Source: an uncultured Methanosarcinales archaeon (GTDB taxonomy: Archaea > Nanobdellota > Nanobdellia > Woesearchaeales > GW2011-AR9). From it: a DNA stretch of 64,000 nt. Below the pieces are notes generated by a model, which did not search any database, was not told the origin of the DNA, and saw only the letters and a list, made by a program, of their open reading frames with translations. The translations under genes were made by a program, and so were the position numbers. The stretch is from NCBI GenBank assembly GCA_964552945.1, contig CAZKIP010000005.1:2643-66642 (forward strand), written 5' to 3'. Positions 5,249 through 63,233 of this stretch are shown piece by piece (within the stretch, counting starts at the first letter, position 1; each line of letters begins with the position of its first letter).

Positions 5249-5803
5249 ATGCTTCATGTACCTAATCAATTAATTGTAAATACCGGAGAACACCATTTAG
5301 TTCAACCAACAATCGACGCTTTCATTGAGAAAGCAATTGATAGAATTAGGGCTAATAATTCCAGTGCAAAATTAGAAATAGATTTTCCCGATTTCAAATA
5401 TGATAGTGATCATTATTACAATGACAATATAGTTTATGTTTTAGCGAATAAGCAAGTTATATGTGGTTGTTTTGTTACAAGAACACCATTTAATTTTGTT
5501 CAATATACTTTTTTTAAAAATGGAAAAAACCTTAAAGAAACAGAACCACTTCCACAACCATCGATAGATGATTATTTTTCTGAAATTGAAGATGAAATTA
5601 GAAAGAATTATCCTGAACGTCCACACCCTTTTATTAGAAGAAACCCTCGCATTATTTCATATGGGCAAGATAAAGGTGACAGAGTTGATTACTTAATGAG
5701 GGATCAAATTCTTATTGCAGCCGTAATTCAAATAGGCCCAGAACCAGGAAGAAATACTTATATTAAAGATTTAGCCTTATATGAAAAAACACTTCAACCA
5801 TAA
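5249..5803 (+). CDS. Hypothetical protein
   Basis: 184-aa ORF with protein-like composition; no recognised motif. Confidence 0.3.
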   Translation: MLHVPNQLIVNTGEHHLVQPTIDAFIEKAIDRIRANNSSAKLEIDFPDFKYDSDHYYNDNIVYVLANKQVICGCFVTRTPFNFVQYTFFKNGKNLKETEPLPQPSIDDYFSEIEDEIRKNYPERPHPFIRRNPRIISYGQDKGDRVDYLMRDQILIAAVIQIGPEPGRNTYIKDLALYEKTLQP

Positions 5804-6231
5804 CAAACATCACAATCATCCAAATCTTTCTCCAACAGAAGATGAATCTTACACAAAGCCTTACTTTTTTTGATAAATGTATTAACATCCTGAATCACTC
5901 TGTAAGCACTTTTTGCATCTTTTATTTCAGTAACTTTTTTCTTTACAAAATCTTTAACTTCAGAAGGCAATTCTATCCCCTTTCCCCTCTTATCTTTTCC
6001 ATACTGAGAAATCGCAGCAGGAGTAACCCCTAGCAAAGAAGCGATGGCTTTTCCACTCTTACCTTTTTCCTTTAACAACTTAACCAATTCTTTTCTAATT
6101 GCAGGAAGAATGTACCAAACTTCTATCTCTTGAGGATGTTTTAGTGGGGCAGTCATTTTTTTAGTAATCTCTTTGTCCTTAAATATCTTTAGAAACCTAA
6201 CATTTCTTTCAATTCTTCTGAAGGTTGCCAA
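5794..6231 (-). CDS. Putative HTH transcriptional regulator (C-terminal CxxC); probable true start at internal Met ~6156
   Basis: GKAIASLLGVTPAAISQY helix-turn-helix; sits at the distal end of the suf operon; annotated N-terminus overlaps the DUF59 gene. Confidence 0.4.
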   Translation of the reverse strand: MATFRRIERNVRFLKIFKDKEITKKMTAPLKHPQEIEVWYILPAIRKELVKLLKEKGKSGKAIASLLGVTPAAISQYGKDKRGKGIELPSEVKDFVKKKVTEIKDAKSAYRVIQDVNTFIKKSKALCKIHLLLEKDLDDCDVCYG

Positions 6232-13107: not shown

Positions 13108-13115
13108 TTTATAAA
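13108..13115 (+). promoter_or_regulatory. TATA box for tRNA-Phe
   Basis: TTTATAAA 26 nt upstream of the tRNA 5' end. Confidence 0.45.
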
Positions 13116-13140: not shown

Positions 13141-13280
13141 GGGACTGTAGCTCAGACTGGGACGCAAGAATTGTAAAAAGCCAATTCTAGTGCAGTAAAG
13201 AGCGCCAGACTGAAGCAAAGTGATTTCGATTACTTTTTGCAGATATCTGGATGTCCAGGGTTCAAATCCCTGCAGTCCCA
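13141..13280 (+). tRNA. tRNA-Phe (GAA) with two introns (D-loop ~13163-13199, canonical 37/38 ~13216-13244)
   Basis: Acceptor GGGACTG/CAGTCCC, D-stem GCTC/GAGC, anticodon stem CCAGA/TCTGG with loop CTGAAG|A, T-arm CAGGG-TTCAAAT-CCCTG; mature length 74 nt after removing 37-nt and 29-nt inserts. Confidence 0.75.
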
Positions 13281-13353
13281 TATTTTCTTAAAAATTCAAC
13301 CTCACCATTAGAAGTTAACTTTATATACTTTAAATAATTCTTTAGAAGGGCAT

Positions 13354-16955: not shown

Positions 16956-17059
16956 GGGCCTGTGGTGTAATCCGGTAGCGCGTCCGGCTGGCAGCCGGGA
17001 TGTTTCGGGATATTATGAGGTAAACTCTAAATACGAAAATTCAAATCCCGACAGGTCCA
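16956..17059 (+). tRNA. tRNA-Ala (GGC) with ~30-nt intron in the T-arm
   Basis: Acceptor GGGCCTG/CAGGTCC with G3:U70, D-arm GTGT/GCGC, anticodon stem TCCGG/CCGGG with loop CTGGCAG, TCGGG + insert + TTCAAAT CCCGA; TATA (TTAAATATTTAAAT) ~30 nt upstream. Confidence 0.7.
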
Positions 17060-17599: not shown

Positions 17600-17713
17600 C
17601 GGGGCCGCCGCGATTTGAACACGGGTTCCACGACCCCCAGCCGTGGGTGATATCTCTCACGAGAAACTCTGAATAAAAAAGTTTCCTCGCTCCAAGCTAC
17701 ACTACGGCCCCAT
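17600..17713 (-). tRNA. tRNA-Pro (GGG) with ~38-nt intron in the D-arm region
   Basis: Minus-strand read: acceptor GGGGCCG/CGGCCCC, anticodon stem CACGG/TCGTG with loop CTGGGGG, T-arm CCGTG-TTCAAAT-CGCGG, oligo-T after the 3' end; a large insert with a GGAAAC/GTTTCT hairpin interrupts the D-arm. Confidence 0.6.
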
Positions 17714-23640: not shown

Positions 23641-23830
23641 AGATAACGGAAATTTTCACAATTTCCGGAATCTTTCAAAAAATCTTGTTTTTTGCTAGAT
23701 AACGGAAATCTTCTTGATTTAACGGTCTTCCAAAATCTTGTTTTTTGCTAGATAACGGAAAATATTGTATTTTCCGGGATCTTTCAAAAATGAACCATTT
23801 TTTCTAGATAGCAGAAATTTTCACAATAGC
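23641..23830. repeat. ~55-bp tandem repeat, 3.5 copies, each starting AGATAACGGAAA and containing a CGGAAA...TTTCCG-type palindrome
   Basis: Copies begin at ~23641, 23698, 23751 and 23807; lies in the divergent region between tRNA-Ile and the first surface lipoprotein gene. Confidence 0.6.
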
Positions 23831-62599: not shown

Positions 62600-63233
62600 A
62601 AATAGTCAGTTTTTTCGAATGTTTAAATAGTTTTGCAGAGTTTTATTGTGTTGTCCTTAAAAAGTAACAACAATAGCGAAACATTTATATATTAGTACCT
62701 CCAAGAAGTAACAACACACCTCAAAACCACCTCTTTTCCTCAGTGGATTTGGAAACTCAATCGCTTCGGCGAAAGTAGTGCCTAAATTCGCTGGGGTTTT
62801 TCTTTTTTAAATAAGTCAATATTTCCCCTTATTGCCCTTTTGGGGCCATTATTTCTCTTTTTAATCAAAAAACCAATTAATTTACCGAAGGTTTTATATA
62901 ATAGAAGAACTAATTTTTAATTAGCCCGGCACGAGAGTACCTTTGGGAGTTGACGGCAATCGCCAAGCAATGAATAAAGGGGTTAGTGGAACGGGCTTCA
63001 TAATTACTCAGAAAATTTGAATATTATCCTTATCATTCACTATACTGTATCACCAAGTTTGCTTAGGATTAGTTCTGTTTTCTGAATCATAAAATAATAA
63101 CAAAGAAAGGGTTTCCTTTATCACATTCATACTCACTACATCATTGTGCTGGATAGCTCTTTCTAGAGGAAAAAAATGGTAAAAATAAAGAATATCATTT
63201 TTAGTATTTAAAAATCATGGAGGATTTTTTAAA

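Follow-up and report, generated by a model that had tools for sequence, protein, structure and literature searches.

The stretch of DNA analyzed here (the window, 64 kb) carries at positions 13141-13280 of the plus strand a sequence composed of GGGACTG TA GCTC AGACTGGGA, an insert of 37 nt, GAGC G CCAGA CTGAAG, a second insert of 29 nt, and A TCTGG ATGTC CAGGG TTCAAAT CCCTG CAGTCCC A. When both inserts were deleted, the remaining sequence, GGGACTGTAGCTCAGACTGGGAGAGCGCCAGACTGAAGATCTGGATGTCCAGGGTTCAAATCCCTGCAGTCCCA, was identified by ARAGORN as a tRNA-Phe(GAA) of 74 nt in which all stems are completely paired. When only the first insert was removed, ARAGORN predicted a tRNA-Phe whose anticodon loop is interrupted by a 29-nt intron, i(39,29), which corresponds to 37/38 in standard numbering. 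The locus very probably represents a functional gene for tRNA-Phe(GAA) in a marine Candidatus Woesearchaeota archaeon, with three exons and two bulge-helix-bulge (BHB)-type introns that are spliced by proteins. A preliminary description of the locus had proposed a tRNA-Phe(GAA) gene with one D-loop intron and one intron at 37/38; this gene model was correct as removal of the two introns restores a flawless 74-nt cloverleaf. For tRNA-Phe, the exon-intron structure, the BHB geometry, the conservation of exons in orthologs whose introns are variable, and the taxon were established directly.

Exon 1 (positions 1-20 of the tRNA; 13141-13161, plus strand) includes the 5' strand of the acceptor stem, U8 and A9, the 5' strand of the D-stem (GCTC) and the D-loop AGACTGGG, and is conserved in orthologs. 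Exon 2 (positions 21-37; 13199-13215, plus strand) consists of A21, the 3' strand of the D-stem (GAGC), G26, the 5' strand of the anticodon stem (CCAGA) and the loop segment CTGAAG with the anticodon GAA. Exon 3 (positions 38-73; 13245-13280, plus strand) spans A38, the 3' strand of the anticodon stem (TCTGG), the variable loop ATGTC, the T arm CAGGG-TTCAAAT-CCCTG, the 3' strand of the acceptor stem (CAGTCCC) and A73. The terminal CCA is not encoded. The spliced tRNA forms a cloverleaf with stems of 7/4/5/5 bp in which 21 of 21 stem base pairs are intact, and the conserved nucleotides U8, A14, G18 and G19, G20, A21, U33, the GAA anticodon, G37, TTCAAAT and A73 can all be read from the sequence. 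The phenylalanine identity set, as defined for yeast tRNA-Phe, comprises G20, G34, A35, A36 and A73, and G37 is the site of wyosine-family modification. All five identity nucleotides, as well as G37, are present in the spliced sequence and recognition by PheRS is predicted. In the BHB register, exon 1 ends with G20.

The TATA-like box TTTATAAA (13108-13115, plus strand) is located ~26-33 nt upstream of the gene and is a putative archaeal promoter. The T-rich tract TATTTTCTT (13281-13289, plus strand), which directly follows the discriminator nucleotide A73, is a putative archaeal terminator. When compared by eye, each tRNA gene of the window (six in all) proved to be preceded by an A/T box at an equal distance and followed by a T-run. 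A scan for sigma-70 promoters and hairpin terminators produced nothing useful; such models do not apply to archaea.

The tRNA-Phe gene was not detected either by ARAGORN with default settings or by Rfam at the gathering threshold. When the Rfam threshold was relaxed to E ≤ 10, the only match was a 15-bit hit to the tmRNA clan over 13141-13283 that reflects the acceptor and T arms, and the Rfam tRNA model gave no score to the unspliced locus. These failures are expected because of the intron in the D-loop. They are also what might be anticipated of a decayed tRNA pseudogene in which two junk insertions are permanently retained, but this interpretation is very unlikely in light of several observations: the 21 stem pairs and all of the conserved tRNA nucleotides are intact after exact removal of the inserts; both inserts possess splice motifs at the required register; independent assemblies carry an identical locus; its neighboring gene is the same as that of the tRNA-Phe genes in relatives, which likewise bear introns; the promoter-like box and terminator-like tract match those of the other five tRNA genes; and no second tRNA-Phe gene was found within the 64-kb window. 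A different identity was suggested by ARAGORN in intron mode, which interpreted the raw 140 nt as tRNA-Asn(gtt) with one 56-nt intron. The D-stem of this model is imperfect, with one G.U pair and one unpaired position in the ARAGORN drawing, the extra arm is very long, and the anticodon stem is the hairpin of intron 1 which is missing from four orthologs (L011, L012, L013 and L008). In a variant of this reading, the D-loop insert would remain in the tRNA and enlarge the D arm. However, an insertion kept between G20 and A21 would be unprecedented, and the BHB central helix at this site is perfect (4/4 pairs). The tRNA-Asn reading and its variant are hardly credible, and the locus is treated below as a tRNA-Phe gene with two introns.

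The window has a G+C content of 31-34%, and matches ENA contig SUTE22-1 scaffold_627 as well as a JGI contig, the latter differing at one position in 17.9 kb. The tRNA-Phe precursor sequence is identical in both of these other assemblies, which derive from different samples. The named homologs of a 739-aa membrane protein that is encoded next to tRNA-Phe are labeled as Candidatus Woesearchaeota or Nanoarchaeota, with the best homolog being 72% identical. The window also encodes archaeal markers, among them topoisomerase VI A and B, a Hef-like helicase-nuclease, NOG1, RIO1 and a KH/Dim2-like protein. Judged by these sequence affinities, the host is a marine Candidatus Woesearchaeota archaeon (DPANN).

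Splice motifs and predicted processing of the tRNA-Phe precursor

In archaeal tRNA splicing, the cleavage sites lie in two 3-nt bulges that are separated by 4 bp, each strand is cut after the second bulge nucleotide, and nucleotide 32 pairs with the intron nucleotide that lies three positions before the 3' splice site. The two tRNA-Phe inserts were assessed against this geometry (arrows below mark the predicted cuts). Intron 1 is a 37-nt intron at position 20/21 (13162-13198, plus strand), or equivalently at 21/22 (13163-13199), as delimited by ARAGORN, the minimum free energy (MFE) fold and a register test. The boundaries 13163-13199 that were given in the preliminary description are equally valid, but the BHB register favors 13162-13198; the difference is a 1-nt slide over an A that leaves the mature sequence unchanged. 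The 5' strand of the central helix H is ACTG (13156-13159, plus strand; D-loop 16-18), which is followed by the 5' bulge GG↓a (13160-13162). The interior of the intron contains an inner helix, CGC/GTG, and a 7-bp stem, AGAATTG/CAATTCT, and then the 3' strand of H, CAGT (13193-13196), and the 3' bulge aa↓A (13197-13199). At this register, H scores 4/4 (ACUG/CAGU) and the inner helix 3/4, with two 3-nt bulges. The D-stem acts as the outer helix with an offset of 2 nt that leaves A14 and G15 unpaired. The 3' site thus falls in a 2x3 internal loop and the motif is of a relaxed, HBh'-like type.

Intron 2 is a 29-nt intron at the canonical position 37/38 (13216-13244, plus strand). Its boundaries, which were obtained from ARAGORN after removal of intron 1, from the MFE fold and from the register test, are unambiguous. 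The intron motif consists of the 5' bulge AG↓c (13214-13216), an 8-bp hairpin (AAAGTGAT/ATTACTTT) and the 3' bulge at↓A (13243-13245). The 3' strand of H is GCAG (13239-13242), in which C32-G, U33-A and G34-C are paired and A35 is mismatched with G. The register scores are 4/4 for the outer helix, which is the anticodon stem, 3/4 for H and 4/4 for the inner helix. The 3' site is canonical, and the 5' site is placed in a 4x3 internal loop by the MFE fold. Each intron displays 3-nt bulges around a 4-bp helix, and on the modeled structures both motifs are relaxed, with the strict hBHBh' form in neither. Group I or group II self-splicing introns and transposable element insertions were considered as the source of the inserts and rejected on the basis of insert size (29 and 37 nt) and the lack of terminal repeats. 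Inspection of the tRNA-Phe introns by eye for C/D-box guide motifs disclosed nothing convincing.

The unspliced 140 nt has an MFE of -50.2 kcal/mol (z = -4.46), and none of 200 shuffled sequences folded as well. The MFE structure is an extended cloverleaf in which the acceptor, D, anticodon and T stems are kept, and each insert forms a stem-loop that extends the D arm or the anticodon arm. In the register test, an intron was scored only at the register that is fixed by restoration of the cloverleaf, and registers displaced by 2-6 nt served as controls. Among 12 tRNA precursors from the window and its relatives, 13 of 22 inferred introns had a perfect 4-bp H along with at least 3/4 inner helix pairs, compared with 0.5% of displaced registers. 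BHB motifs at the required register exceed chance. Moreover, the first pair of H in the 20/21 intron covaries, being A-U in tRNA-Phe of the window, U.G in tRNA-Phe of the relative L010, and C-G in tRNA-Ile of the window.

The enzymes and chemistry that would splice the tRNA-Phe precursor are extrapolated from established archaeal tRNA splicing. Transcription from the TATA-box promoter of the gene itself would generate a precursor of ~140 nt that ends at the T-run, to which CCA would be added later. The precursor would fold as a cloverleaf in which the D arm and the anticodon arm are each lengthened by an intron stem-loop. At each exon-intron junction pair, two 3-nt bulges ~4 bp apart would be offered to the splicing endonuclease EndA, which would cleave both strands on the 3' side of the second nucleotide of the bulge: G20↓A21 with aa↓A21 for intron 1, and G37↓c with at↓A38 for intron 2. 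The exons would then be joined by the RtcB ligase. Genes for EndA and RtcB were not found in the 64-kb window, either in a Pfam table for positions 1-20129 or in Pfam scans of most open reading frames of at least 110 aa between 20 and 63 kb, and thus we infer the enzyme for tRNA-Phe splicing. The relaxed motifs of both introns imply an EndA of broad specificity. Such breadth has been proposed for the DPANN alpha4 EndA with an L3 loop (PMC5829648).

Interrupted tRNA genes in the window and in relatives

Scanning of the window by hand uncovered six tRNA genes, every one of which is interrupted, with a total of ten introns. In addition to tRNA-Phe(GAA) at 13141-13280 on the plus strand with introns at 20/21 and 37/38, the set includes tRNA-Ala(GGC) (16956-17059, plus strand) with a 30-nt intron at 53/54 (17010-17039). 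The central helix of this intron is TTCG/CGAA (4/4) when examined by hand with the intron reset to 30 nt. The tRNA-Pro(GGG) gene (17711-17600, minus strand) has a 40-nt D-loop intron that is one register from 20/21, and its BHB is poor with a central helix of 3 bp only (CUU/GAG) and extra unpaired nucleotides. The model for tRNA-Pro produced by ARAGORN with default settings (17601-17669) was rejected as truncated and wrong, having missed the real 5' half. The tRNA-Ile(GAT) gene (23609-23430, minus strand) extends over 180 nt for a tRNA of 74 nt and bears three introns: 34 nt at 20/21 (23588-23555; central helix CCTG/CAGG, 4/4), 22 nt at 37/38, and 50 nt at 59/60 with a near-canonical hBHBh' motif. 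The tRNA-Arg(TCT) gene (55671-55537, minus strand) possesses introns at 37/38 and 59/60, and tRNA-Cys(GCA) (55488-55378, minus strand) has an intron at ~59/60 with a weak BHB. An imperfect tandem repeat (23641-23827; period of ~56 nt, 3.4 copies, 71% matches) is located immediately upstream of tRNA-Ile.

Default ARAGORN and Rfam in combination recovered one of the six genes correctly. The interruption of all six tRNA genes and the recovery of a single one show that 'missing tRNAs' in DPANN metagenome assemblies are at least partly an artifact of annotation. Claims about completeness or auxotrophy of DPANN genomes that are based on tRNA counts need intron-aware searches.

A tRNA-Phe gene resides downstream of the same 739-aa membrane protein gene in five relatives, namely L010, L011, L012, L008 and L013. 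A sixth, L003, was found via the T-arm and acceptor sequence and not via the neighboring gene. The contig L007 showed no tRNA in the 180 nt between the neighboring gene and the contig end. Scanning of genomes with the plain 22-mer of the T arm and acceptor retrieved one tRNA-Phe gene (L003) and two tRNA-Trp genes (L004 and L005), all in Woesearchaeota metagenome-assembled genomes. The same 22-mer in a metagenome scan retrieved one contig, L006, which does not differ from L003 across the part of the tRNA-Phe locus that was read; the T arm and acceptor of the window tRNA-Phe recur unchanged in both. The gapped pattern CTGAAG-N{14,44}-T-arm had no match in the metagenome scan. The L004 and L005 loci were rejected as orthologs of tRNA-Phe as both are tRNA-Trp genes. 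These tRNA-Trp(CCA) genes (L004, 3750-3865; L005, 744-862) match tRNA-Phe exactly in the acceptor stem and T arm, and each has a long intron in or beside the anticodon loop.

The exons of tRNA-Phe are kept in the six Woesearchaeota relatives and the introns are variable, with positions 18/19, 20/21, 30/31, 37/38, 46/47 and 53/54 represented. Thus, the seven orthologs, including that of the window, use six different intron positions. The window gene is interrupted at 20/21 and 37/38, and L010 (4770-4914) at the same two positions with introns of 32 nt and 39 nt, respectively. Introns occur at 30/31 and 37/38 in L011 (6208-6322), at 30/31 and 53/54 in L012 (5753-5875), at 30/31, 37/38 and 53/54 in L008, at 53/54 only in L013, and at 18/19 and 46/47 in L003 (= L006). 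In L011, L012, L013 and L008 the D-loop is uninterrupted at the site of intron 1 and reads (A)TCTGGGAGAGC, GTTGGGAGAGC or GCGGGAGAGC. The intact D-loop in these four orthologs establishes that the mature tRNA does not include the 37 nt. The 37/38 insert is missing from L012 and L013. Removal of the two inserts from the window gene restores a canonical tRNA, and each insert is absent in some orthologs. In the orthologs, the central helices are perfect (4 bp) in the non-canonical introns and weaker (2-3/4) in the canonical 37/38 introns.

The mature tRNA-Phe sequences of L010 and L011 are identical but their intron sets differ (20/21 and 37/38 versus 30/31 and 37/38, respectively). Intron turnover in this pair thus outpaces exon change. 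The 20/21 introns of the window and L010 have a common 3' part, TTCT(A/T)GTGCAG(T/G)AA (pairwise p = 0.013), a sequence similarity that is consistent with vertical inheritance. Matches to LAGLIDADG_3 were observed in two open reading frames in relatives, L012 5857-6615 (minus strand; faint) and L015 1-666 (plus strand). The former lies against the 3' end of the L012 tRNA-Phe gene (5753-5875), with a slight overlap. The location of homing endonuclease-like genes beside an intron-rich tRNA may be coincidence.

Recurrence at position 20/21 and intron mobility

The preliminary description noted that the first intron of tRNA-Ile occupies the position of intron 1 in tRNA-Phe. This proved to be the case, with both introns at 20/21 and of the same architecture. 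The recurrence of the D-loop site that was also reported is real: position 20/21 is interrupted in tRNA-Phe and tRNA-Ile of the window and in tRNA-Phe of L010, and the tRNA-Pro intron is one register away. Two explanations had been offered for this pattern, transposition of introns and a lineage-specific preference for the splice site.

If the D-loop introns of tRNA-Phe, tRNA-Ile and tRNA-Pro were copies of one mobile intron that has been transposed between tRNA genes, the situation would resemble that in the Thermoproteales in which large-scale transposition of BHB introns is documented (Fujishima 2010, as cited in PMC4090602 and PMC4033280). Half of the window's tRNA genes, three of six, are interrupted at or beside 20/21, as would be expected of such an element. 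However, local alignments of the three introns were no better than those of shuffled sequences (p > 0.1 for each pair). Furthermore, the common 3' end of the D-loop introns, GCAG(G/T)AA, is forced by the need to pair with the conserved CTG of the D-loop. A mobile D-loop intron is therefore unlikely.

A preference for the site accounts better for the pattern and can be explained by structure. The 3' exon that follows an intron at 20/21, 37/38 or 59/60 opens with a single unpaired nucleotide (21, 38 and 60, respectively) which is followed by the 3' strand of the stem of the same arm. As one unpaired nucleotide precedes the stem of the arm at all three positions, the native stem serves as the outer helix of the BHB. 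We infer that 20/21, 37/38 and 59/60 correspond to one geometric location in three hairpin loops, and that the recurrence reflects BHB geometry with no need of a mobile element. The preference is not lineage-specific, however, as 20/21 is among the known non-canonical sites (PMC4090602) and tRNA-Glu of Methanopyrus kandleri is interrupted at 20b/21 and 37/38 (PMC5829648).

The suggested relatedness of the introns was assessed across the window and the relatives. The result was negative for the D-loop introns of tRNA-Phe, tRNA-Ile and tRNA-Pro, and a single hint emerged from a pair at different positions. The 20/21 intron of tRNA-Phe and the 37/38 intron of tRNA-Arg share the core TTGTAAAAA(G)CCAATT in which 15 of 16 positions match (13171-13186, plus strand; 55626-55612, minus strand). 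On a family-wise basis, mononucleotide shuffling of the window set gave a similarity of this extent in 6 of 2000 cases and structure-preserving shuffling in 16 of 3000, and p = 0.005 with the introns of relatives included; the core spans only 16 nt, is A/T-rich, and is paired in a different register in each of the hairpins. It is not present in the orthologous 20/21 intron of L010, and there is no other exact copy in the window. The pair also is a point in favor of a mobile D-loop intron, and the shortness, composition, registers and absence from L010 of the core weigh on the opposite side. The NFACT gene beside tRNA-Arg had no conserved gene order in relatives, and its 100%-identical match was on a 2.2-kb contig. 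The shared core may be a vestige of relatedness between introns at different positions, and we regard this sequence similarity solely as a lead. If the core does reflect descent, an intron or segment would have moved between tRNA genes and positions in a DPANN archaeon.

The broader proposition that BHB introns are actively gained, lost and moved in Woesearchaeota at a faster pace than tRNA exons diverge is possible, but doubtful. If it were true, the Woesearchaeota, a large clade of uncultured archaea, would provide a second, independent natural system after the Thermoproteales in which the spread of BHB introns could be studied.

Comparison with known systems

Introns at 20/21 are among the known non-canonical positions in tRNA genes (PMC4090602). 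More widely, intron positions 20/21, 30/31, 53/54 and 59/60, tRNA genes with multiple introns, and intron transposition in the Thermoproteales are established (PMC4090602; PMC4033280). The two-intron layout of tRNA-Phe is thus already known in archaea, and the locus is a well-supported and fairly ordinary case that leaves the accepted mechanism of archaeal tRNA splicing unchanged. It adds a clean Woesearchaeota example to the multi-intron archaeal tRNAs, with repeated use of the D-loop equivalent of the canonical site.

The closest precedent is the tRNA-Glu(UUC) precursor of Methanopyrus kandleri which has a relaxed HBh' intron at 20b/21 and a canonical 37/38 intron, both of which are cleaved by EndA in vitro (Kaneta et al., 2018; PMC5829648). 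The two cases are alike in the possession of a D-loop intron just before A21, a relaxed motif and an additional 37/38 intron. They differ in that the tRNA described here is tRNA-Phe instead of tRNA-Glu, the host is a DPANN Woesearchaeota archaeon and not a member of the Euryarchaeota, and cleavage by EndA is predicted. Moreover, whereas M. kandleri has a single non-canonical intron, every tRNA gene in the 64-kb window is interrupted.

Multi-intron tRNA genes in the Thermoproteales and other Crenarchaeota were described by Sugahara (2007, 2008) and Marck and Grosjean (2003), according to the reviews PMC4090602 and PMC4033280. The resemblance extends to two to three BHB introns per tRNA, the non-canonical sites 20/21, 30/31, 53/54 and 59/60, the interruption of many genes, and relaxed BHB motifs. 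In contrast, the crenarchaeal hosts are hyperthermophilic, GC-rich members of TACK with an (alpha-beta)2 EndA that has an L1 loop, but the host here is a marine DPANN archaeon of 33% G+C. In addition, the introns of the Thermoproteales form clear sequence families indicative of transposition, whereas only one weak pair was detected in the present study. The two-intron tRNA-Phe(GAA) of the Guillardia theta nucleomorph, which possesses non-canonical D- or T-arm introns (Kawach 2005, as cited in PMC4090602), also is similar in its layout and its non-canonical introns. Nevertheless, on the account cited, it is a eukaryotic nucleomorph gene, its introns are 3-24 nt in length, and the two are not homologous by descent.

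Raised levels of tRNA disruption have been reported in DPANN genomes, including one Woesearchaeota genome (RBG_13_36_6; Fig. 7 of PMC5829648). The disrupted tRNAs of DPANN archaea, for which the epsilon2 EndA of ARMAN-2 and an alpha4 EndA with an L3 loop are known, derive from the same superphylum as the host described here, and RBG_13_36_6 is from the same phylum. The published treatment of RBG_13_36_6 is a summary chart of one genome (PMC5829648), and the individual genes, intron positions and ortholog-to-ortholog intron turnover presented here were not described in the literature searched. The ortholog series shows fast intron turnover on exons that are conserved and, in one pair, identical, and offers material with which BHB intron gain can be tested. 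The main practical value of the locus concerns tRNA annotation in DPANN genomes, and the main lead is intron turnover in Woesearchaeota together with the one possible case of relatedness across positions.

Elsewhere in the window, a segment of ~630 nt (62600-63230) is devoid of open reading frames of 110 aa or longer and includes GC-rich segments. Within it, positions 62923-62997 have no match in Rfam and fold as a closed stem structure (-25.8 kcal/mol; z = -2.2), and on this predicted structure the region may harbor an unannotated small RNA.
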